From: Candidatus Altiarchaeota archaeon
GTDB taxonomy: Archaea > Altiarchaeota > Altiarchaeia > IMC4 > SCGC-AAA252-I15
Length of the DNA stretch: 64,000 nucleotides
Direction: 5' to 3'
NCBI GenBank assembly: GCA_041306075.1
Contig: JBFYKH010000007.1
Location: 8,821-72,820 of the forward strand
Position numbers and translations under genes: made by a program. The notes beneath the pieces were generated by a model, which made no database searches, had not been told where the DNA came from, and saw nothing but the letters and a program-made list of their open reading frames with translations. Positions 6,029-39,793 of this stretch are shown here, piece by piece; positions within the stretch are counted from its first letter, which is position 1; each line of letters starts with the position of its first letter.

Positions 6029-6355
6029 ATGCATAAGGGCTTATTTACCTTAACCCTAATGGATATTATGGCAAATGCGAGAATCAACTACCTTATAGAC
6101 GCCCTACTTGGGTTGAGTTTCTTCATTACTGCTGCGACAAGCGTAATCATATTCCTTTTCCTGCCTTCAGGGGTCCGCCAGGGAGGCTACCAGGAGTTTA
6201 TGGGCATAACCAAAAGCACATATGGCCTTGTGCACACATACGTCGGCCTATTGATGATAGGCCTCTCGCTCGTACATCTTGTGTTGCACTTTGATTGGAT
6301 AGTGTGCATGACTAAAAACCTTTTCAAGAAAACCGGCGAATGTGCTGTAGAGTAA
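6029..6355 (+). CDS. Small polytopic membrane protein (DUF4405-like?)
   Basis: 108 aa, 2-3 hydrophobic helices; lies in the low-GC patch downstream of tRNA-Glu. Confidence 0.45.
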   Translation: MHKGLFTLTLMDIMANARINYLIDALLGLSFFITAATSVIIFLFLPSGVRQGGYQEFMGITKSTYGLVHTYVGLLMIGLSLVHLVLHFDWIVCMTKNLFKKTGECAVE

Positions 6356-6433
6356 TTCCCTGTCGGATTACGTGTTCAAATGCGGGGTTTTTTTTTTAAG
6401 CATGTGGCCCCATACTATTAATGAGGTGTTTTT

Positions 6434-7360
6434 ATGAAACTTATTGCCACAGTTGCTCTGTTGTTTTGTCTTGCGTCCGTCGCATGTGCCATCGGCCCCA
6501 TTGAGGGTCAGGGAACAGGTCAAGGGATTTTGATTCAAGAGGAGACTCAGAACGAGGGCGAAAGCCAGAACCTGACAGTCCAGCAGCAGACTGCTGCCGG
6601 CGCTGGGCAGGGCTCAGGCCAGGGCAGCATGGTCCAGCAGGAGACTCAGAACGCCGGCGAAGGCCAGAATCTGGCCGCCCAGCAGCAGACTGGTGAAGGA
6701 AAAGGCCAGGGCGCAAGTCAAGGCTCCGGTCAAGGCAATGCTGGCGCGGGTCAGGGGGCAGGCCAGTCCAGCATGGTCCAGCAGGAGACTCAGAACGCCG
6801 GCGAAGGCCAGAATCTGGCCGTCAAGCAACAGAGTGGTCAGGGCCAATCCAAGTCTGAGCAGATGGCGCAGGTGAAGCAGACGGTACGGGAGAAGAAGCA
6901 ACAACTGGACCGGGAAGTAGCTGGGATGAACAACAACCGGGACAAGCAGAAGGTGTTCCAGAACCAGAATCAGGTCAGGCTAGCAGTTCATTCCTTATTG
7001 GCGCTAGAAAACTTGACCGGCGGCATAGGCAAGCAGGTTTCACAGATTGCCCGGGAATTCGACAACTCCATACAATCAACGCTCAGGTCCGAGGAGAAGG
7101 TGCAAACTCGCGCAGGCGTGTCCAGATTCTTCTTTGGAGGGGATGAAGAATCCGCAGACGAGATATTGGGTCAGGTTACCCGCAACCAGGCGAGGATACA
7201 GCAGTTGAACCAATTGATGCTGGAGGGCGGCTTAGACGAGGATGTGAAGGCCATGGTGCAGGAGCAGATACGGATAATGCAGCAGGAGCAAGAGCGCCTC
7301 CGGCTGATGGCCCAACAGGAAAAAAATAGCAAAGGCCTCTTTGGCTGGCTGTGGAAATAG
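6434..7360 (+). CDS. Secreted repeat protein (signal peptide, Q/G-rich tandem repeats, C-terminal coiled coil)
   Basis: 308 aa; N-terminal MKLIATVALLFCLASVACA; three copies of ...SMVQQETQNAGEGQNLAAQQQTG... (about 80-bp tandem DNA repeats at 6600-6860). Confidence 0.55.
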   Translation: MKLIATVALLFCLASVACAIGPIEGQGTGQGILIQEETQNEGESQNLTVQQQTAAGAGQGSGQGSMVQQETQNAGEGQNLAAQQQTGEGKGQGASQGSGQGNAGAGQGAGQSSMVQQETQNAGEGQNLAVKQQSGQGQSKSEQMAQVKQTVREKKQQLDREVAGMNNNRDKQKVFQNQNQVRLAVHSLLALENLTGGIGKQVSQIAREFDNSIQSTLRSEEKVQTRAGVSRFFFGGDEESADEILGQVTRNQARIQQLNQLMLEGGLDEDVKAMVQEQIRIMQQEQERLRLMAQQEKNSKGLFGWLWK

Positions 7361-31091: not shown

Positions 31092-31318
31092 GGCCTTATA
31101 GATACGCCGCCAGCTAAAAAATGCTCATAACACCTCGCGAATCACGTAGCCCGCCTCTGAACTGACGTTTAGCCGGGGTCTTCGGCCGGCCGGATTGTCG
31201 CGCAGTGTCAGGCCCATAAAATCTATTAGCGCCCTCGGTATCCTCAGACGACAACCGCCCGCACTAGCGGTTTTTTGTCGTGGCATCCTTTTTATTCGGC
31301 TTTTTCCTCTGTTATACC

Positions 31319-33190
31319 ATGCGCGTTTTGTTGCTCCACAGCGACTTCCTGGAGTACGAGACCAGGCAGAAGGCGTTGAAGACTGCCAAGGACGCCACTG
31401 AGAAGGCGGGCCGCGCGGAGAACGCGCTGGTCGTGTTCATGGCCGGGGAGAAGGCTGACGAGGCAGACCCGGCCTCGGTGGTCGAGCAGCTAGTCCGTGA
31501 TGTCGTGGACATGTACTCCAAGGTCAAGGCGGAGTCCATAGTCCTGTACCCCTACGCCCACCTCTCGAGCGACCTTTCCCGCCCCCAGGTGGCCGAAGAC
31601 ATGTTGGAGCGGGCGTATGAGGCCCTCCGCGGCGACTACAAGGTCGTCAAGGCGCCTTTCGGATGGTATAAGGCGTTCACCGTGAAGTGCAAGGGGCATC
31701 CGCTGTCCGAGCTCTCAAGGACCATATTGCCTGCTGGGGGCCAGGAGAAGAAGCTGCAGGAGTCCGAGGCCATAAAGAAGGAGGAGAAGATACGGAGCGT
31801 CTGGTACATCATGACTCCGGACGGCGCGCTCCAGGACGTCGGCGCATTCGACTACTCGGGGCACGAGAAGCTCAGGAAGTTCGCATACTACGAGCGCGCG
31901 AAGTCCAGGGTCGTTGACCGGCCGCCGCCGCACATCGAGCTCATGCGGCAGCTTGAGCTCGTGGACTACGAGCCGGCGAGCGACCCCGGGAACCTCAGGT
32001 ACTACCCGAAGGGGAGGATGATAAAGGCGCTCCTTGAAGAGTACGTCACGGATAACATACTCAACTACGGCGGCGTCGAGGTGGAGACGCCCATAATGTA
32101 CGATTTCGAGCACCCCACGCTAGCGAAATACATGGCCCGCTTCCCCGCCCGCCAGTACACGATAGAGTCCGACGACAAGAAGTACTTCCTCCGGTTCGCG
32201 GCCTGCTTCGGCCAGTTCCTGATTGCCCACGACGCCACGCTCAGCTACAGGAGCCTGCCGCTCAGGCTCTACGAGATGACGCGGTACAGCTTCAGGCGGG
32301 AGAAGAGCGGCGAACTCACCGGCCTCAGGCGCCTGCGCGCCTTCACGATGCCGGACGTGCACGCCCTGTGCGCGGGCATGGAGCAGGCGGTGAAGGAGTA
32401 CCGCCGCCGCTTCCAGCTGTGCCGTTCCACGATAGAGGGCGTCGGCCTGTCCATGGACGACGTCGAGGTCGCGGTGAGGGTCACGAGGGACTTCTACAAC
32501 GAGAACGAGGACTTCATAAAATACCTCGTCAAGGAGGCCGGCAAGCCGGTGCTCGTCGAGATGTGGGACGAGCGGATATTCTACTTCGTCCTGAAGTACG
32601 AGTTCAACTTCGTCGACGCCCTTGACAAGGCATCATGCCTTTCGACCGACCAGATAGACGTCGAGAACGGGGAACGCTACGGCATAAACTACACGGACTC
32701 GGACGGCGTGAAGAAGCACCCCGTCATACTCCACTGCTCCCCGTCGGGGGCGATAGAGCGGATAATATACGCCCTCCTGGAGAAGGCCCACATGGCGAAG
32801 GAGGCGGGGGTGGCCCCGTCCCTGCCAATGTGGCTTTCGCCCACCCAAATCAGGGTCATACCGATATCCGAGAAGCACCTGGACTACTCGTCGAAGCTCG
32901 CCGACCGCCTCGAGGAGAAGCGGATACGCGTCGACGTCGACGACAGGAACGAGAGCATGGGCAAGAAGATACGCGACGCGGAGCGCGAATGGGTGCCTTA
33001 CATCCTGGTGGTCGGAGACAAGGAGATAGAGTCCGGGATGGTGCAGGTCCGGGTTCGCGGCCAGAAGGACCAGAAGACGCTCGTCCCGGAGGCCGTCGGC
33101 GTGGAAGTCAAGGAGAAGTCTAAGGGCATGCCCTACAGGAAGCTGCCCCTGCCCCGTCTGCTTTCGCAGAGGCCGACGTTCGTCGGCTGA
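31319..33190 (+). CDS. thrS: Threonyl-tRNA synthetase (archaeal type with N-terminal editing domain)
   Basis: About 623 aa from the ATG at 31319 (the track ORF starts at 31280); class II core ...FRREKSGELTGLRRLRAFTMPDVH...; C-terminal anticodon-binding domain. Confidence 0.9.
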   Translation: MRVLLLHSDFLEYETRQKALKTAKDATEKAGRAENALVVFMAGEKADEADPASVVEQLVRDVVDMYSKVKAESIVLYPYAHLSSDLSRPQVAEDMLERAYEALRGDYKVVKAPFGWYKAFTVKCKGHPLSELSRTILPAGGQEKKLQESEAIKKEEKIRSVWYIMTPDGALQDVGAFDYSGHEKLRKFAYYERAKSRVVDRPPPHIELMRQLELVDYEPASDPGNLRYYPKGRMIKALLEEYVTDNILNYGGVEVETPIMYDFEHPTLAKYMARFPARQYTIESDDKKYFLRFAACFGQFLIAHDATLSYRSLPLRLYEMTRYSFRREKSGELTGLRRLRAFTMPDVHALCAGMEQAVKEYRRRFQLCRSTIEGVGLSMDDVEVAVRVTRDFYNENEDFIKYLVKEAGKPVLVEMWDERIFYFVLKYEFNFVDALDKASCLSTDQIDVENGERYGINYTDSDGVKKHPVILHCSPSGAIERIIYALLEKAHMAKEAGVAPSLPMWLSPTQIRVIPISEKHLDYSSKLADRLEEKRIRVDVDDRNESMGKKIRDAEREWVPYILVVGDKEIESGMVQVRVRGQKDQKTLVPEAVGVEVKEKSKGMPYRKLPLPRLLSQRPTFVG

Positions 33191-33264
33191 ACCTGGGCCG
33201 TTCCGTCCGCCAACCCAAGGATACTGCGCCAGCCTTATATACCCGTATCCTTTATTCATAACCT

Positions 33265-33957
33265 ATGGCCCAGTCTAGGCAGCAGGACGACGACAAGCGG
33301 GCTGCGGCGTACGCGGCCCTGCGCGAGGTCAAGGGCGGCATGAAGGTGGGTTTGGGCAGCGGCAGCACCGCGAACATGTTCATAGAGGAGCTCGGGAAGA
33401 GGAAGTTCCCGGGGCTCTGCGTGGCCTCCTCGAAGGCGAGCGAGGAGATAGCGAGGAAGGCGGGGCTGAAGCTCACGACCCTGGACAGCCTCATAGCATC
33501 CCTGAAGGGCGAGGAAGAGGAGACCATCCTCGACCTGTACGTGGACGGCGCCGACGAGGTGGACAAGTCCATGAACCTCATCAAGGGCGGGGGCGGCGCG
33601 CACACCAGGGAGAAGGTCGTGGCCTCGGCCGCCGCGGAGTTCATATGCATAGTCGACGAGTCCAAGCTAGTCAGCCGGCTCGGGACGTTCCCCCTGCCGG
33701 TGGAGGTCGTCCCCTACGCCCGTTCGTACGTGTCCTGGGAGCTCGGAGAGCTCGGGGCGAAGGCCGCCGAGAGGCCGAAGTTCGTCACGGACAACGGCAA
33801 CGTCATACTGGACGCGGAGGGGCTGGATTTCAAGGACCCCCTCCAGCTCGAGACCGAGCTCAACAACATACCCGGGGTCGTGGAGAACGGGATATTCGCG
33901 GTCAGGCAGCCCGAGCGCGTCATAGTCGGCCGCAAGGGCAAGGCCGAGTACCTTTAA
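33265..33957 (+). CDS. rpiA: Ribose-5-phosphate isomerase A
   Basis: 230 aa; GLGSGSTA, ...DGADEVD..., KGGGGAHTREK motifs. Confidence 0.85.
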   Translation: MAQSRQQDDDKRAAAYAALREVKGGMKVGLGSGSTANMFIEELGKRKFPGLCVASSKASEEIARKAGLKLTTLDSLIASLKGEEEETILDLYVDGADEVDKSMNLIKGGGGAHTREKVVASAAAEFICIVDESKLVSRLGTFPLPVEVVPYARSYVSWELGELGAKAAERPKFVTDNGNVILDAEGLDFKDPLQLETELNNIPGVVENGIFAVRQPERVIVGRKGKAEYL

Positions 33958-33961
33958 GCTC

Positions 33962-34378
33962 ATGGACGAGTCACAGATGCAGCGGCTGCTGATGCAGCTT
34001 GAGATGGGGAAGCGCCAGATGAACGAGCTTAACCGGCAGGCTCAGCTTGCGGAGTCCGCGGTGGCGGAAACCAACTCCGCAATCGAGGCATTGGACGGCC
34101 TGAAGGGAGAGAAGCCGGGCGCGGAAGTCCTCGTTCCCATAGGTGGGGGCGCGTTCGTGCGGGCGTCCCTGAAGGGGGTGGACAGCGTGATCGTCGGTGC
34201 CGGCGCCGAGATGTACGTCGAGAAGGGCGTCGCCGACGCCGTGAAGACGTTCGAGGAAAGGAAGGCCAGGCTCCTGGAGTCCCTCTCCGCGATGCAGAAG
34301 ACGATGGGGGAGCTCGGCATGAAGGTGGCGGAACTCGACGCCCAGGCGCAGAGGCTCATGTCCCAGGCGAAAGAGTAA
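33962..34378 (+). CDS. pfdA: Prefoldin alpha subunit
   Basis: 138 aa; coiled coils flanking two beta hairpins (...VLVPIGGGAFVRA...VIVGAGAEMYVEK...); conserved position upstream of ftsY. Confidence 0.75.
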   Translation: MDESQMQRLLMQLEMGKRQMNELNRQAQLAESAVAETNSAIEALDGLKGEKPGAEVLVPIGGGAFVRASLKGVDSVIVGAGAEMYVEKGVADAVKTFEERKARLLESLSAMQKTMGELGMKVAELDAQAQRLMSQAKE

Positions 34379-34379
34379 A

Positions 34380-35330
34380 ATGTTCGAGGCACTGAGGGAG
34401 AGGCTCGGCTCTTTCATAGGCTCCGTCAAGGACAAGGCCGAGCCCAGGCTGTCAGCCGTGACCCAGGTCAAGGCGGCAGTCACCGGCCGCGCGACGCTGA
34501 CGGAGGCCGACGTCTCAGACACTCTGTGGCAGCTTGAGACAGGCCTTCTAGAGAGTGACGTCTCGATGGAGACCGCGGAACATATAGTCGGCGCCCTCAG
34601 GGAGCGGCTGGTGGGCCTCCAGGTCTCCTCAGGCTCGGCCGGGGAGGCCGTGCGGGCCGCGCTCAGGGCTGGGTTGCTTGAGGCCCTGAAGCCTGTTAAG
34701 GAAGTCGACCTGGTCGCGTCCGCAAAGGCGGGGGGGAAGCCGTTCAAGGTGCTTGTGCTCGGCGTCAACGGCACAGGCAAGACCACGTCCATGGCGAAGC
34801 TGGCGAGGCTCCTCATGGACAACGGCTTGTCTGTCGTGTTCGCCGCCGGCGACACGTTCAGGGCGGGGGCTATAGAGCAGCTTGAGGAGCATGCCCGCCG
34901 GCTCGGCGTCAGGGTCGTGTCCCACCAGAGGGGCGGCGACTCGGCGGCCGTCCTCTACGACTCGGTGGAGCATGCCGCCGCCCGTGGGGTGGACGTGGTG
35001 CTCGCGGACACGGCGGGGAGGATGCAGTCCAAGGCCAATCTCATGGAGGAATTGAAGAAGGTTGTCCGCGTGTATAAGCCCGACATGACGCTATTCGTGG
35101 CGGACGCTCTCGCCGGCAACGACGCCGTAGAGCAGGCGAGGACATTCAACGAGGCCGTGGGCTTCGATGCTGCGGTGCTCTCCAAGATGGACGCGGACGC
35201 GAAGGGGGGGAGCGCCCTCTCGATAGTCCATGCGACAGGGAAGCCTGTCATCTACGTGGGCTTGGGCCAGGGCTACGGAGACCTGAAAAAGTTCGACGGG
35301 AACTGGTTCGTCGACAAGATACTGTCCTAG
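34380..35330 (+). CDS. ftsY: Signal recognition particle receptor FtsY
   Basis: 316 aa; GVNGTGKTTS, ...AAGDTFRAGAIEQL..., DTAGR motifs. Confidence 0.9.
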   Translation: MFEALRERLGSFIGSVKDKAEPRLSAVTQVKAAVTGRATLTEADVSDTLWQLETGLLESDVSMETAEHIVGALRERLVGLQVSSGSAGEAVRAALRAGLLEALKPVKEVDLVASAKAGGKPFKVLVLGVNGTGKTTSMAKLARLLMDNGLSVVFAAGDTFRAGAIEQLEEHARRLGVRVVSHQRGGDSAAVLYDSVEHAAARGVDVVLADTAGRMQSKANLMEELKKVVRVYKPDMTLFVADALAGNDAVEQARTFNEAVGFDAAVLSKMDADAKGGSALSIVHATGKPVIYVGLGQGYGDLKKFDGNWFVDKILS

Positions 35331-35339
35331 AATCGCCCC

Positions 35340-35616
35340 GATCCACCCCCGGCTTTTGGCCGGGGGTGGGGGGTGGTTGGCTGAATTACCACATCCTTGT
35401 GGATGTGATTGTAACCTCCGCAGCCCCATATTGCGGAGGTGATGGCGTTCGTCCCATCATGGAGTGATGCGATTTTTTTTGGCGAGCCTGATCCACCCCC
35501 GGCTTTTGGCCGGGGGTGGGGGGTGGTTGGCTGAATTACCACATCCTTGTGGATGTGATTGTGAGCCAGATCCACCCCCGGCTTTTGGCCGGGGGTGGGG
35601 GGTGGTTGGGGTGATG
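35340..35616. repeat. Tandem G-rich double-hairpin repeat (2 full copies of about 73 bp plus 1 partial)
   Basis: GATCCACCCCCGGCTTTTGGCCGGGGGTGGGGGGTGGTTGGCTGAATTACCACATCCTTGTGGATGTGATTGT at 35340 and 35490 (150-bp period); partial copy at 35569; each unit has hairpins CACCCCCGGC/GCCGGGGGTG and CACATCC/GGATGTG. Confidence 0.7.
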
Positions 35617-35625
35617 TAATAAGCG

Positions 35626-36054
35626 TTACCTTATCCTGTAGTACACTCTCCGGCCGGCGTATTCCTTTTCAAGCCTGCCTTCGTGGAATAACTTCGATAG
35701 TCTGGCGCTTGCCGCGTTCTTTCCCTTGTAGCCGAGCTTTTTCTGTAGTTCGTCGGCGCATATCCTCCCCTTCTCCCTGACATGTTCGAGGACTTCGATG
35801 TCCCGGTCGGTGAGGTCGGCCGTCTCCTGGTTTTTGCGGCCTTGTTGTTGGGCCATGCCCTCTATCTTTGCGCCGAGCGCCTCTATCTGGGAGTTGAGGT
35901 TCTTGATTATGAGGTTCGTGCTTTTGCGCTCTTCGGCGAGCTGGTATAGCATGAGTCCGATGGCGACGGGGTCTTGTATCTGGTTCGTGGCCTGGGCTAC
36001 TTCGCCGAGGAGTTCCTTGTATTCTTTCTCGTATTCAGCCCCGCTACCTTTCAT
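35626..36054 (-). CDS. Winged-helix DNA-binding protein with N-terminal coiled coil
   Basis: 142 aa; C-terminal wHTH ...LEHVREKGRICADELQKKLGYKGKNAASARLSKLFHEGRL... Confidence 0.5.
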   Translation of the reverse strand: MKGSGAEYEKEYKELLGEVAQATNQIQDPVAIGLMLYQLAEERKSTNLIIKNLNSQIEALGAKIEGMAQQQGRKNQETADLTDRDIEVLEHVREKGRICADELQKKLGYKGKNAASARLSKLFHEGRLEKEYAGRRVYYRIR

Positions 36055-36293
36055 GACAGATATGATATTATCATGACTCTTTAAATACTTATCGATTGAC
36101 GCATGATACTATCGAAGATACACCAATGACTGCTATATAGCCAAAAAAGCCACTAATAAGCGTTTATCCCTACCAATGGCTCATAATCACCGCTTGACAG
36201 TCAGGCGGCCCCCAACAGTATGACTGCAAAGTGTCATGACTTCAACCTTATGCGGCAAGACGGCATCGCAACACAACCCCGACAGAATCACAT

Positions 36294-36992
36294 TTACCCG
36301 GACGCCCTGGCTATCCGCAGAAGCTCCTCCCTGTTGGCCGGCATCAACGCCTCCCTCATGAACCCTACGCCGTTCAGCGAGCCCCGGACCATCGCGTCGG
36401 CGGCCATGAATATGCGCTCGTCGCCGAGTCCAGCCGCCTTGTTCTCGTCCGAGACCGAAATCACCAGGGCTATCACATCCGACTCGGTCCTCAACACAGA
36501 CTCCGCATCCCGCTTCTCCACAGCAGCCAAGAGTTCCGCTATGGCGAGCCTCCGCGACTCCTCAGGGCTCAACGGCGGCTTCTGTACTGGCGGCGCAACC
36601 GCGGCTTCGGTCGCCGGCTTGGGCGCCTTCGCCGGCTCCGCTGCCGGCTTAGCGGGCTCCAAGACGGCGTTCAGTCCGCCGCCGTATTTTATCTTGTGGT
36701 AGTCCCCGATTGTCGTCTTCACGTCGGCCTCGACGTACTCCCTCAGTATCGCCCTGACGTTCTCCTCGAACTCCGGCCTCTTGCCCTCCAGTATTTCGCC
36801 CACATACGCGCGGCCATCCTCCCCGGACTCCGCTATCTGGTTGAGGAGGTCGGCTGCCAGCCTCACGTTCGCAAGCTCGATGAGCCTGCCGCTCCTTGCG
36901 TCTATCACGTCCTTTCCGTCGCGGCTCATCAGGTCGTATTCCCCGCGCTTGAGGCCCTGTATACTGAGCGCTCTGTCCGTAGGGTCCATCAT
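36294..36992 (-). CDS. Hypothetical protein (possible tandem Roadblock/LC7-like domains with A/P-rich linker)
   Basis: 232 aa; central AKPAAEPAKAPKPATEAAVAPP linker; fold assignment is tentative. Confidence 0.35.
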   Translation of the reverse strand: MMDPTDRALSIQGLKRGEYDLMSRDGKDVIDARSGRLIELANVRLAADLLNQIAESGEDGRAYVGEILEGKRPEFEENVRAILREYVEADVKTTIGDYHKIKYGGGLNAVLEPAKPAAEPAKAPKPATEAAVAPPVQKPPLSPEESRRLAIAELLAAVEKRDAESVLRTESDVIALVISVSDENKAAGLGDERIFMAADAMVRGSLNGVGFMREALMPANREELLRIARASG

Positions 36993-37264
36993 ACCCCCCC
37001 GGCTATCCTCTTCAGGGCCGCGAACGTGCTGAACAGCCTGCCCACGCTTCCGAAGACGGTCTTCGAGAGCTTGAGGGACGCCTTGAGGGACTCCTGCAGC
37101 TCCGCTCCCACGGCGGCATTGGACTTGAGTATGACGGCCTTGGATACGCTGTCCCTGACGTATTTTATGCCCCGGGCGGTCTCGACAGCGAGGGAAGCCT
37201 CGATGGGCGGCGCCTCGCCGAGGTCCTTCCTCCTTAGCCTCTCAGGCTCGACTGTCTGCGGCAT
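36989..37264 (-). CDS. Hypothetical small protein
   Basis: 91 aa ORF overlapping the upstream gene by 4 nt (coupled). Confidence 0.3.
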   Translation of the reverse strand: MPQTVEPERLRRKDLGEAPPIEASLAVETARGIKYVRDSVSKAVILKSNAAVGAELQESLKASLKLSKTVFGSVGRLFSTFAALKRIAGGV

Positions 37265-37291
37265 CGTATTACCCTTTCGAATCCATCGTAT

Positions 37292-37858
37292 TTAATCGAG
37301 TGTCCCGGTCACCGTGACCCTTTCCCCGACGTCTATCTTCGCGAGCGTCTTGACCTTGAATCCGGTCGCCTTGCGGACCGCCTCGACCCCGCCGCCGCGC
37401 TCTATGACGCACACGGCGTCCTTGATTACGGCGCCCCCCGCCCGCAGGGCCTCGATGGTCGCGATGAGCGTCCCCCCCGTGCTCACCACCGCATCCACTA
37501 TGGCGACCACGTCCCCCCTCCTGACGGAGTTCAGGTACATCTTCGACCCGCCGTATCCGGTGCGCTGGTTGAGCTCTATTTCGCCCGGGAGCCCGTACTG
37601 TCTCTTCCTGATTATGTTGAACGGCAGGCCTGTAATCTGCGACAGGACTGCGGACACGTGTATGCCCATCGCCTCCATGGTCACTATGTAGTCGACGTCG
37701 AGGTCCGCGCGCTCCTTGATGGCCTCGCAGACTTCGGCGAGCAGCCGGGGTTCGATGGGCGGTATGCTGTCCGTGAGCTGGTGGATGAAATACGCATACT
37801 CCCCGCGCCTCATCAGAGGCGCAGCCTCTAGCGAGGCCTTCAAAAGGTCAAGTTTCAT
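37292..37858 (-). CDS. Purine phosphoribosyltransferase (archaeal Hpt/Apt-like type I PRTase)
   Basis: 188 aa; PRPP-binding motif VVAIVDAVVSTGGTL. Confidence 0.7.
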   Translation of the reverse strand: MKLDLLKASLEAAPLMRRGEYAYFIHQLTDSIPPIEPRLLAEVCEAIKERADLDVDYIVTMEAMGIHVSAVLSQITGLPFNIIRKRQYGLPGEIELNQRTGYGGSKMYLNSVRRGDVVAIVDAVVSTGGTLIATIEALRAGGAVIKDAVCVIERGGGVEAVRKATGFKVKTLAKIDVGERVTVTGTLD

Positions 37859-39104
37859 TCTTGTCTGCGAGCCTCATCGCCGCCTTCCCCGCCTTCTTGA
37901 GGACCTCCTCCTCCCCCTCTACGATGCCGGACTCCATGATCACCCTGCCGTCGCATATCACCGTGTCGACGCAGCCTCCGGCTGCGCTGTACACGAGGTT
38001 GGATTCGAGGCTGTGGAGCGGGGTCATATCCGGCCTTTTGAGGTTGACGAGCACGATGTCGGCCAGCGCCCCAGGCCGTATCGCGCCGGCCTCAATTCCG
38101 AGGGCGGCAGCCCCATCCGAGGTTGCCATCCGGAGCGCTTCGGCCGCGGGCAGCGCTGTCGGGTCTGAGGTCGCCATCTTCTGCAAGAGGGCCGCGGACT
38201 TCATGGCGCCGAACATGTCCAGGCTGTTGTTGGAGGATGCGCCGTCAGTTCCAAGGGACACCGTGACTCCGGACTTCCTCATCCGGGCGTAATCCATCGT
38301 CCCGCCGACCGAGAGCTTCATGTTCGATGTGGGGCAGTGGGCGACCTTCACGCCGTGCTCCGCCAGCAGCCTTATCTCCCTCCTTGCGAGCCAGACCGCG
38401 TGCGCGCACAGGAGCCTCGGCCCCAGGAACCCTATGTCGGCGAGGTACTCCACCGGCGCCTTCCCGTGCGCCCTCAGGCAGTCGTCCACCTCCTTCCTCG
38501 TCTCGCCGAGGTGGAAGTGGACGTTCAGGCCGCGTCTGTCCGACAGCTCCTTGACCCACCTGAGCCCCTCCTCCGTCACGGTGTATATCGCATGGGGGCC
38601 GAGGGACAAGGAGACCCTGGAGCCCGCCTTCCACCGTTTCGCCTGCCGTTCCGCCTCAGCCCTCTGGGCGGCGGCCTTTCCCCGGCTGAACATGTCGATG
38701 AAGACGCTCGCCAGATGCGCCCTTAAGCCCGAGTCCTCGACCGCCTTCACGGCGCCCTTGACATGCCAGTACATGTCGTTGAAACAGGTCGTCCCTGACT
38801 TGGCCATCTCCAGGCAGGCGAGCCTCGTGCCCCAATAGACGTCCTTCTCGGTCATCTTCGCCTCCACCGGCCAGATGTGGCCCTGCAGCCACTCCGCAAG
38901 CGCCATGTCGTCGGCGTACCCGCGAAGGAGCGTCATCGCAGCGTGCGTGTGCGTGTTCACGAACCCAGGCAGGGCCGCCTTGCCCCTGCCGTCTATGACA
39001 TGCTCGGCCCTCGGCCTCCCCTCGAGCCTCGCAATCCTGTTGCCCTCCACCAGGATGTTCGCCCTCCGGCCGGCGAGGAGGACGTCCTTGACGAGTATGC
39101 TCAT
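37848..39104 (-). CDS. mtaD: 5'-methylthioadenosine/S-adenosylhomocysteine deaminase-like amidohydrolase (MtaD family)
   Basis: About 418 aa from MSILVKD (internal Met of the 461-aa track ORF); ...PGFVNTHTHAAMTLLRG... metal-binding HxH. Confidence 0.8.
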   Translation of the reverse strand: MSILVKDVLLAGRRANILVEGNRIARLEGRPRAEHVIDGRGKAALPGFVNTHTHAAMTLLRGYADDMALAEWLQGHIWPVEAKMTEKDVYWGTRLACLEMAKSGTTCFNDMYWHVKGAVKAVEDSGLRAHLASVFIDMFSRGKAAAQRAEAERQAKRWKAGSRVSLSLGPHAIYTVTEEGLRWVKELSDRRGLNVHFHLGETRKEVDDCLRAHGKAPVEYLADIGFLGPRLLCAHAVWLARREIRLLAEHGVKVAHCPTSNMKLSVGGTMDYARMRKSGVTVSLGTDGASSNNSLDMFGAMKSAALLQKMATSDPTALPAAEALRMATSDGAAALGIEAGAIRPGALADIVLVNLKRPDMTPLHSLESNLVYSAAGGCVDTVICDGRVIMESGIVEGEEEVLKKAGKAAMRLADKNET

Positions 39105-39793
39105 AAACCCTCCCCCGCGAGCGCCTCCAGAACGGCTTCCACCCGCCTCCTGTTCAGTGCGGCATTGGCCTTGATATCCTCCGCATCGAACCGGCCGCCC
39201 GACAGGCCATGGGCCATGTTGTCGACGGAGCATATGGCCGCGTAACCGAGGCCGAGTTCCTGGGCGAGCGTGGCCTCGGAGGCGACCGTCATGCCGACCA
39301 CGTCCGCATAGTCGGAAAGGAGCCTCACCTCCGCCCTCGTCTCCAGCCTCGGCCCCCTGGTCTGGGCGTAAACGCCCGAGTCCACGACCCTGACTTTGGC
39401 CTTCCTGGCGGCCTCTAGTATCCTTGCCCTCAAGCCCGGGTCGAAGGACGGCACGATGTGCTTTACCCTCCTGTCGTGGTACGTCGGCGGCGCGAAATCC
39501 AGGTAGTCGTCTGGCACGACCAGCGTCCCGGGCCTAATCCCCCTCCTGAGGCTGCCGACCGAGCCTACGCCGACCACTTCCACTGCGTACCTCGACAGCG
39601 CCAGCATGTTCGCCCTGTGGTTGATTCTGTGCGGAGGCGCTCCTCCATGGTGCCTAAAGAGGAGCGCGTACCCTCCCCCCACCGTGAGGGGGGCCCCGCC
39701 GTACCGGGTCCGGGCCCGGACGCTCCTGCCGCCCGAAGCCAGGGCGGTGCCTTCGAGCACGCCGCCCCCCGAGACCCCGAGCAGATTCCGCAT
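39101..39793 (-). CDS. mtnP: S-methyl-5'-thioadenosine phosphorylase (MTAP / PNP family)
   Basis: About 230 aa from MRNLLGVSGGG (P-loop-like GxxGGxG); ...INHRANMLAL... motif; the track ORF extends upstream to 39835. Confidence 0.8.
   Translation of the reverse strand: MRNLLGVSGGGVLEGTALASGGRSVRARTRYGGAPLTVGGGYALLFRHHGGAPPHRINHRANMLALSRYAVEVVGVGSVGSLRRGIRPGTLVVPDDYLDFAPPTYHDRRVKHIVPSFDPGLRARILEAARKAKVRVVDSGVYAQTRGPRLETRAEVRLLSDYADVVGMTVASEATLAQELGLGYAAICSVDNMAHGLSGGRFDAEDIKANAALNRRRVEAVLEALAGEGL

Follow-up and report, generated by a model that had tools for sequence, protein, structure and literature searches.

The DNA analysed here, a stretch of 64,000 nucleotides from an Altiarchaeota MAG (the window), carries a repeated, hairpin-forming sequence between ftsY and a small winged-helix gene that converges on it. 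The question it raises is what this sequence is and on which molecule, DNA or RNA, it acts. An earlier interpretation from the letters alone (the sequence-only reading) had put forward three candidates: a miniature repeat element, a stacked bidirectional terminator, or a small RNA family. Comparing the locus with related loci (designated by L numbers), we conclude that it is a structured RNA locus not described before, specific to one lineage and coupled to an orphan winged-helix gene.

The repeat locus, its distribution and its gene

A repeat search returned a direct-repeat family of three copies, at 35337-35412, 35487-35562 (99% identical) and 35566-35641 (66% overall), with copy spacings of 150 and 79 nt; the identity of the third copy is only 66% overall because the match is limited to its first ~45 nt. 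The 73-nt units at 35340-35412 and 35490-35562 are identical to each other, and the third copy (35569-35611) has its first 42-43 nt in common with them. The 27-mer hairpin occurs three times (0.00 expected from 100 dinucleotide shuffles) and the 38-mer second half twice (0.00 expected from shuffles), which excludes chance. Tandem Repeats Finder reported no repeat at the locus because the repeat period is irregular. The sequence-only reading had described two complete 73-bp units with a 150-bp period and a third partial unit, and we recovered these coordinates and both hairpins, with corrections of detail. Hairpin 1, present in each copy, is a perfect 11-bp stem with a 5-nt loop on the G-rich strand (CCACCCCCGGC-TTTTG-GCCGGGGGTGG), its arms having been given as 10 bp; hairpin 2, present in the two full copies only, closes on the 4-nt loop TTGT (CACATCC-TTGT-GGATGTG) and not on the 3-nt TTG. 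The 77 nt between the full units (35413-35489), previously counted as a single spacer, are not filler: they hold a covarying hairpin (35415-35439), a conserved GGAGTGATG motif (35461-35471) and a T8 run (35473-35480).

Described in the sense of the window minus strand (Table 1), the full module (F) runs in the order H2 (AUCACAUC-loop-GAUGUGGU), AAUUCAG, C-string CCAACCACCCCCC, HP1 and AUC, and the terminal (T) module in the order GCUUAUUACAUCACC, C-string, HP1. Between modules stand A-runs, the M motif CACAUCACUCC, the weak hairpin HPB and the hairpin HPA. The window thus contains one truncated module by the stop codon, a middle segment and two full modules, F2 and F1; the module copy number differs among loci, from 1 to 4, and additional hairpin modules are inserted in some species. 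The C-string is unpaired in the minimum-free-energy fold. Note that H2 of F2 reaches 9 bp only if a minus-strand U.G pair is counted, and that the A8 linker is the T8 run of the + strand. On the G-rich strand, 18 terminal modules keep the T motif as GGTGATGTA(A)TAAGC, and the T module looks like a full module minus the 3' arm of H2, i.e. minus the 17 nt UAGAUGUGGUAAUUCAG.

Table 1. Features of the element and its neighbours in the window (RNA sense, minus strand)
Feature	Position	Strand	Remark
ftsY, convergent neighbour	34380..35330	+	PF00448, E=8.7e-73
First minus-strand U5 tract past the element, within the 3' end of ftsY	35286..35290	-	
HP1 of module F1, last hairpin of the element in RNA sense	35343..35369	-	covariation
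Invariant unpaired core of F1, GGUAAUUCAG + C-string	35368..35390	-	
H2 of full module F1	35388..35409	-	
Hairpin HPA, loop UAUGGGG here, consensus UAUAGGG	35415..35439	-	compensatory changes
Weak hairpin HPB (GATGG / CCATC)	35441..35458	-	poorly conserved at other loci
M motif, CGCAUCACUCC here, consensus CACAUCACUCC, with the A8 linker before it	35461..35480	-	
HP1 of module F2	35493..35519	-	covariation
Invariant unpaired core of F2, GGUAAUUCAG + C-string CCAACCACCCCCC	35518..35540	-	invariant alignment columns
H2 of full module F2, AUCACAUCC-ACAA-GGAUGUGGU	35538..35559	-	
HP1 of the terminal (T) module, 11 bp, loop CAAAA	35572..35598	-	covariation
C-string copy 1, CCAACCACCCCCC, predicted unpaired	35597..35609	-	
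T motif, first conserved segment past the stop codon, (N)GCUUAUUACAUCACC	35610..35625	-	
Coiled-coil + winged-helix gene, 142 aa	35626..36054	-	ORF; stop codon 35626-35628; element starts right after
TATA-like box TATTTAAA	36080..36087	-	about 29 nt upstream of the ATG at 36054

Several smaller features accompany this layout. A 5-bp dyad, GTGGT-N10-ACCAC, lies in the core at 35373-35392 and 35523-35542 and could be either a site on the DNA that a dimer binds or, in the RNA, a 5-bp hairpin competing with H2 as an alternative to it. In the C-rich sense, UUAUUACAUC of the T motif (35610-35620) is complementary to GAUGUGGUAA of the full modules (35398-35408 / 35548-35558) over 10 bp with two G.U pairs, a predicted pairing that can serve as an alternative to H2; the T motif lies directly past the stop codon, where a terminating ribosome would cover it. 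Three species have an extra conserved module between repeat units (L007 about 6146-6545, L008 about 194-540, L023 about 1846-2411), which reads on the G-rich strand GTGCGTGCC-stem-GGCAC(C/T)CGCTTCCGCG followed by the hairpin CCGAGGATCGG, and the first part of which, in the C-rich sense, is CGC-GGAA-GCG with a GNRA-type tetraloop.

An exact scan for GGTGGTTGGCTGAATTACC across 185,579 species genomes (one per species) gave 13 stretches, 12 of them in Altiarchaeota-type MAGs with one locus each and one a chance match in Legionella; a metagenome scan added 11 further real loci and one chance match. The chance 19-mer matches (L017 5528-5546 in Legionella, L021 3358-3376) carry no other feature of the element. 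It is also present at L001, L002, L004 and L005, in genomes whose FtsY relatives are 92%, 71%, 67% and 56% identical to that of the window, and the three-copy layout is repeated in the first of these. The winged-helix gene adjoins the element at every locus with enough flank: the genes of this family encode 138-185 aa, the element begins 0-1 nt past their stop codon, and the first CCAACCACC (C-string) stands 14-17 nt past it in 20 of the 22 distinct loci with enough flank. The neighbour on the opposite side varies: in the window it is ftsY, in L002 a 320-aa gene of the same strand, so that the element there has co-directional genes on either side, and in L004 and L005 other genes take the place. 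The ftsY link is thus incidental. The ftsY assignment itself, made earlier from the sequence, holds (Table 1), and the closest relatives of the window FtsY are FtsY proteins of Candidatus Altiarchaeota/Altiarchaeales MAGs.

The link between gene and element is confirmed by loci reached from distant proteins of the family. L034 has four C-strings, and L033 (2138-2215) is a minimal form with one C-string 14 nt past the stop codon, one hairpin, and U5 and U6 tracts; its hairpin has a different stem (CCACCUACAGC / GCUGUAGGUGG) with the CCACC/GGUGG base kept. The surroundings include a clade-conserved gene block (window 31280-39233, and L002, L004, L005 and L034) comprising ThrRS, ribose-5-phosphate isomerase, prefoldin, FtsY, the winged-helix gene, two orphan genes (232 and 91 aa here), a phosphoribosyltransferase and an amidohydrolase, with a nitroreductase inserted in some genomes. 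In L012 a run of N at about 6204-6225 falls within the repeat region of the MAG contig, near-identical units causing gaps in short-read assembly.

The protein of 142 aa belongs to no Pfam family. It has sub-threshold ArsR/SmtB and Lrs14 matches only, the best curated family being NF033788 at 25.8 bits versus a cutoff of 55, with Pfam HTH_24 at E=0.013; remote-homology searches (profile versus PDB sequences, Pfam on 28 family members) gave coiled-coil noise and weak winged-helix matches only. In its AF2 model, long helices at the N terminus are followed by a winged helix at the C terminus. The fold matches are MarR/ArsR/AspA/Zalpha-like and weak (E >= 2.5e-3), with DNA-binding MarR/ArsR proteins first and Zalpha bound to Z-RNA among them (rmsd 1.5-1.6 A over about 62 residues). 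As judged from the model, the protein is a winged-helix fold outside the curated families; the wHTH regulator of the sequence-only reading is therefore borne out as a predicted fold, its sequence matches all being sub-threshold. The N-terminal coiled coil of the model suggests a dimer. The family counts 41 clusters, all from Altiarchaeota but for one Micrarchaeota member, and a putative recognition helix, Y-x-G-x-NAASAR-x-S-x-L, is invariant in 28 sequences. By archaeal promoter geometry, the position of the TATA-like box before the ATG points to a separate promoter and to an mRNA that is probably leaderless or near-leaderless. The upstream 232-aa gene ends at a terminator-like site, a hairpin plus T6 on the minus strand (36147-36182).

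Hairpins held by selection for base pairing, and an unpaired core

The hairpins are held by selection for base pairing. With 47 distinct modules aligned to the model, 98.6% of the cells of HP1 and H2 are paired and double changes occur in 11 of the 18 pairs, values equalled in 0 of 500 shuffles, and slid-partner controls bring the pairing down to 42-47%. HP1 covaries in 8 of 9 pairs with its CCACC/GGUGG base retained. HPA has compensatory changes in 6 of 9 pairs, and its closing pair is U.G (C-rich sense) in 15/15 sequences; pair 19/56 of H2 is likewise U.G in 31 of 33. The lengths of the hairpin loops range from 4 to 14 nt among loci. Covarying stems together with variable loop lengths indicate that selection acts on a folded strand, and neither on a rigid duplex protein site nor on a coding sequence. 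Indeed, the coding readings were rejected because the lengths of the C-run and of the loops differ by non-multiples of 3: an 82-aa minus-strand ORF over two units (35327-35575), with a repeated peptide, is spurious, its frame not being conserved, and for read-through of the winged-helix stop codon the frames are not conserved between species.

The unpaired core is under tighter constraint than the protein encoded next to it. Its 23 nt, AUGUGGUAAUUCAGCCAACCACC, do not differ between L001, L002, L004, L005 and L034, five of the six loci fetched independently; all five are full-module loci, reached via FtsY or via the winged-helix protein and not by the DNA pattern. Over the last 100 codons of the adjacent winged-helix gene, 44-62% of the amino acids and 62-72% of the nucleotides are identical. 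The core is unchanged even in lineages whose FtsY proteins are only 56% identical. Note that L007-L031 were found by an exact 19-mer from the core, so that its invariance there is partly by construction.

Strand of transcription and rival explanations

The RNA is probably read in the C-rich sense, that of the window minus strand and of the winged-helix gene. The same pairs are standard in 98.6% of cases in the C-rich sense versus 93.5% in the G-rich sense, and the internal HP1 pairs include, in the C-rich sense, 8 G.U and 0 A.C. A strand-symmetric hairpin finder gave the same asymmetry for HP1, H2 and HPA, and the U.G pairs of H2 and HPA would be C.A on the other strand, which argues for the C-rich sense. 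Part of the G-to-A excess on the G-rich strand could reflect mutation bias instead of selection. Within 6.5 kb there are 55 runs of T5 or more on the G-rich strand, against 3 on the C-rich one; some lie within HP1 loops and some bracket a 15-nt motif (L004). In archaea the intrinsic termination signal is oligo-T, and not hairpins; if the runs on the G-rich strand act as such signals, transcription through the element would be possible in the C-rich sense only. The three most divergent loci (L015, L033 and L034) have U5-U6 tracts directly past the last hairpin in this sense.

Some observations go against a C-rich reading. Many loci, the window included, lack a U-tract soon past the last hairpin on the C-rich strand; in the window the first U5 comes about 45 nt past it, a possible end of the minus-strand transcript, and is absent in other loci. 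Four species-specific accessory hairpins (L007, L029, L019) have their G.T pairs on the G-rich strand instead, and at several loci A/T-rich boxes, which could be promoters, stand about 30 nt upstream of the first unit on that strand. Since the evidence overall favours the C-rich strand, 'G-rich' describes the probable template and not the RNA, the unpaired parts of which are C/A-rich and G-poor. The sequence-only reading had taken the repeat for a G-rich sequence capable of forming a G-quadruplex; four G-runs of 3 or more are not available for an intramolecular quadruplex, as outside hairpin 1 only GGGGGG, GG and GG remain on the strand. Its small-RNA candidate fared better, the covariation supporting a structured RNA, though one probably read from the opposite strand.

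A reading from the opposite strand would make of the element a cluster of short functional sRNAs transcribed from the G-rich (+) strand, with oligo-T ends, the last one antisense to the 3' end of the winged-helix mRNA and regulating it. We regard this as unlikely. T-runs after the modules are ~4 times commoner on the + strand than base composition predicts, and the A/T-rich boxes ~30 nt upstream of unit 1 and the G.T pairs of the four accessory hairpins would fit. However, the T5 runs within HP1 loops and the pairs of T-runs around the 15-nt motif (L004) are senseless as transcription units, the 10-15 nt from a T-run to the next hairpin leave no room for a promoter, and every internal exception in HP1, HPA and H2 becomes a mismatch on that strand. 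GUGAUG and CUGA on the G-rich strand recall C and D boxes; the sequences flanking them, however, lack complementarity and cannot form a K-turn (manual check), Rfam gave no snoRNA match, and the strand evidence points the other way; a box C/D sRNA was rejected on these grounds. It is also rather improbable that the invariant sequences are duplex-DNA sites, operator- or centromere-like, for the adjacent, presumably dimeric winged-helix protein, the hairpins being separate or incidental. In favour of it, the invariant putative recognition helix goes together with an invariant nucleic-acid motif and obligate gene linkage, the dyad lies within the core, the fold matches include DNA-binding MarR, ArsR and AspA centromere-binding proteins, and the coiled coil suggests a dimer. 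Yet covariation, strand-asymmetric wobbles and variable loops are the marks of selection on a folded single strand, the terminal modules and the minimal L033 form have no dyad, about 430 bp separate the sites from the promoter of the gene, which is upstream, and a 23-nt identity across lineages with 56% identical FtsY is unusual for an operator.

A further alternative sees in the element only a stack of hairpins that stabilises the 3' ends of the convergent genes and terminates their transcripts, with no part in recognition. This would account for the position at gene 3' ends, for the GC-rich hairpins, for the U-tracts past the last hairpin in L015, L033 and L034, and for the T8 run, which probably ends the ftsY transcripts. 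Such a stack could do without an unpaired core of 23 invariant nucleotides, without a constant distance to the stop codon and without conserved motifs between hairpins, and in L002 the flanking genes are co-directional; we hold it to be improbable as the whole explanation. The stacked bidirectional terminator of the sequence-only reading is mostly unsupported for the same reasons, the unpaired sequence being tighter than a terminator needs, and no minus-strand U-tract follows the hairpins in the window. Mobility is practically excluded. Copies within a genome are indeed 100% identical over the 73-nt units, as expected of a MITE- or REP-like repeat or of a recent functionless local duplication; against this, each of the 12 species-level genomes has one locus in the same syntenic position (the metagenome scan agreeing), a genome with 92% identical FtsY has the same three-copy layout, and a covariance-model search of the 64-kb window returned the three known copies and no others. 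There is no insertion polymorphism either, the element occupying the same position past the winged-helix stop at every locus with enough flank. The miniature repeat element suggested earlier is thereby refuted, as the exact scan places the element in Altiarchaeota MAGs only, at one syntenic locus per genome: it is not dispersed. The opposite case that had been raised, a unit unique to this locus and simply duplicated in place, does not hold, as the same element is syntenic in related genomes. Nor is the locus a CRISPR array, as had been recognised from the sequence: the spacing is irregular (150 and 79 nt), the 'spacers' (H2, HPA and the M motif) are conserved across species, and the only match of this type is CRISPR-DR9 in L029, at 24.9 bits versus a 45-bit cutoff. 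One stop-codon-linked locus in every related genome examined sets the element apart from all three, MITE, CRISPR and recent duplication.

Other known classes were compared with the locus. With Rfam 15, only two tRNAs reached the gathering threshold in the 64-kb window, the best local matches being far below it, and ten related loci gave no match at gathering or relaxed thresholds. An H/ACA guide RNA was rejected (weak Pab91 match, 18.9 bits versus a 71-bit cutoff), HP1 being a perfect stem with no pseudouridylation pocket. A replication origin, with ORB boxes carrying a G-string, was rejected in view of the variable loops and covarying stems, the convergent and not divergent genes, and the missing link to cdc6. 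PADLOC gave no meaningful defence or toxin-antitoxin match for the four neighbouring proteins. G-rich complements to the C-string within the 64-kb window are at chance level only, and RNAduplex energies for the core paired to the coding sequence or the 5' end of the winged-helix gene itself equal those of shuffled controls in 19 loci. Literature searches brought up no paper on non-coding or regulatory RNAs of Altiarchaeota and none with the core sequence.

A candidate recognition platform and its likeness to known systems

The best explanation, to which we give a probability of about 0.55, is that the element is a modular structured RNA that prolongs the winged-helix mRNA at its 3' end and offers a multivalent platform for recognition. 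In the window it would occupy 35340-35625 on the minus strand as the 3' extension of the 142-aa gene transcript, from which it may later be processed out. The ancestral module would have had four parts: H2, the unpaired AAUUCAG, the unpaired, G-free C-string and the GC-rich clamp HP1. The hairpins would act as structural clamps and protect the 3' end, the last one being also part of the terminator, and the A-runs would be flexible linkers, with complementary T-runs that put an end to antisense transcription entering the element. Past ftsY, the first oligo-T met with in the window is the T8 run, and ftsY transcripts probably run antisense through F1 up to it.

The working part would be the unpaired C/A-rich motif, repeated in 1-4 copies that set the valency of the recognition site. 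We favour a recognition role because hairpins alone do not explain an invariant, unpaired, G-free motif in fixed register to the stop codon. The candidate partner is a protein or a G-rich RNA. Among proteins, the co-encoded winged-helix protein is the prime candidate, because its putative recognition helix is invariant, its linkage obligate and its predicted coiled coil dimerising. Binding of the coiled-coil winged-helix protein to the modules of its own transcript, in an autoregulatory loop or a stable ribonucleoprotein, which would make gene and element a dedicated pair that only this archaeal lineage has, is at this stage a tentative proposal with the odds well against it.

A more speculative version of this proposal has the RNA act as a decoy of the rRNA tail, for Shine-Dalgarno sequences or for small-subunit maturation factors. 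Motifs of the AUCAC(C/U)CC type (AUCACCCC, AUCACUCC and AUCACCUCC in the window) may imitate the 16S rRNA 3' tail, which we take to be GAUCACCUCC, and the core presumably resembles 16S rRNA segments (the 3' tail and the h31/530-loop regions). AUCAC occurs 107 times in 6.5 kb, about 6 being expected. The sole homologue outside the Altiarchaeota (L032 2443-2600; Micrarchaeota, P0161) has no C-string; past its stop codon comes CUUCACCUCCCACACCAUC, then the hairpin CUUCAACCC-UUCG-GGGUUGAAG and a U-rich tract. In this corresponding place, before the hairpin, stands UCACCUCC, presumably equal to the 16S rRNA 3' tail.

Altiarchaeota are uncultivated, and the locus is a clean, testable candidate for a regulatory RNA in this group: single-copy, with strong covariation and an invariant core, and locked to an orphan protein. 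Should the protein bind the RNA, the locus would be an uncommon instance of a winged-helix protein and its RNA partner being encoded side by side; should the C-rich motif pair with other RNAs, archaea would have in the element a counterpart to the C-rich-seed sRNAs known from Firmicutes. The alignment is ready as a new RNA family model, and the locus is a practical clade marker.

Known systems resemble the element in different respects. REP/BIME elements are GC-rich palindromes past bacterial stop codons, sometimes in tandem, that protect mRNA 3' ends, but REPs are dispersed in hundreds of copies, whereas the element is single-locus and syntenic with a large conserved unpaired part. ToxI of type III toxin-antitoxin systems also consists of tandem direct RNA repeats adjoining a small protein gene; its uniform 36-nt units precede an endoribonuclease toxin gene and are cleaved to give monomers, whereas the repeats here follow a winged-helix gene, are heterogeneous and separated by spacers, and come with no PADLOC match of note. 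A winged-helix fold together with a conserved 3'-UTR hairpin recalls Roquin with ROQ/CDE, SelB with SECIS and Zalpha with Z-RNA, from which the locus differs in that its protein has no sequence homology and weak fold matches, its HP1 stems are not alternating CG, and binding is hypothetical. CsrB/RsmZ, which bind CsrA, and CrcZ with its CA motifs (Hfq/Crc) share with the element repeated short unpaired motifs on a hairpin scaffold and a varying valency; the motif here is a different one, the element is tied to the stop codon of one gene, its protein binding is hypothetical, and we know of no CsrA or Crc partner in archaea. RsaE/RoxS with several C-rich regions and the tandem LhrC1-5 of Listeria with repeated UCCC are C-rich-seed sRNAs that, like the element, present copies of an unpaired C-rich motif beside stable hairpins, with tandem duplication of units and a copy number differing between relatives. 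The element has no sequence or Rfam similarity to them, comes from archaea, and continues a protein gene at its 3' end instead of standing free; its motif of 13-25 nt is invariant and longer than the usual seed, any pairing with G-rich ribosome-binding sites would be hypothetical, no target having come up in 64 kb, and the likeness is one of working, not of homology.
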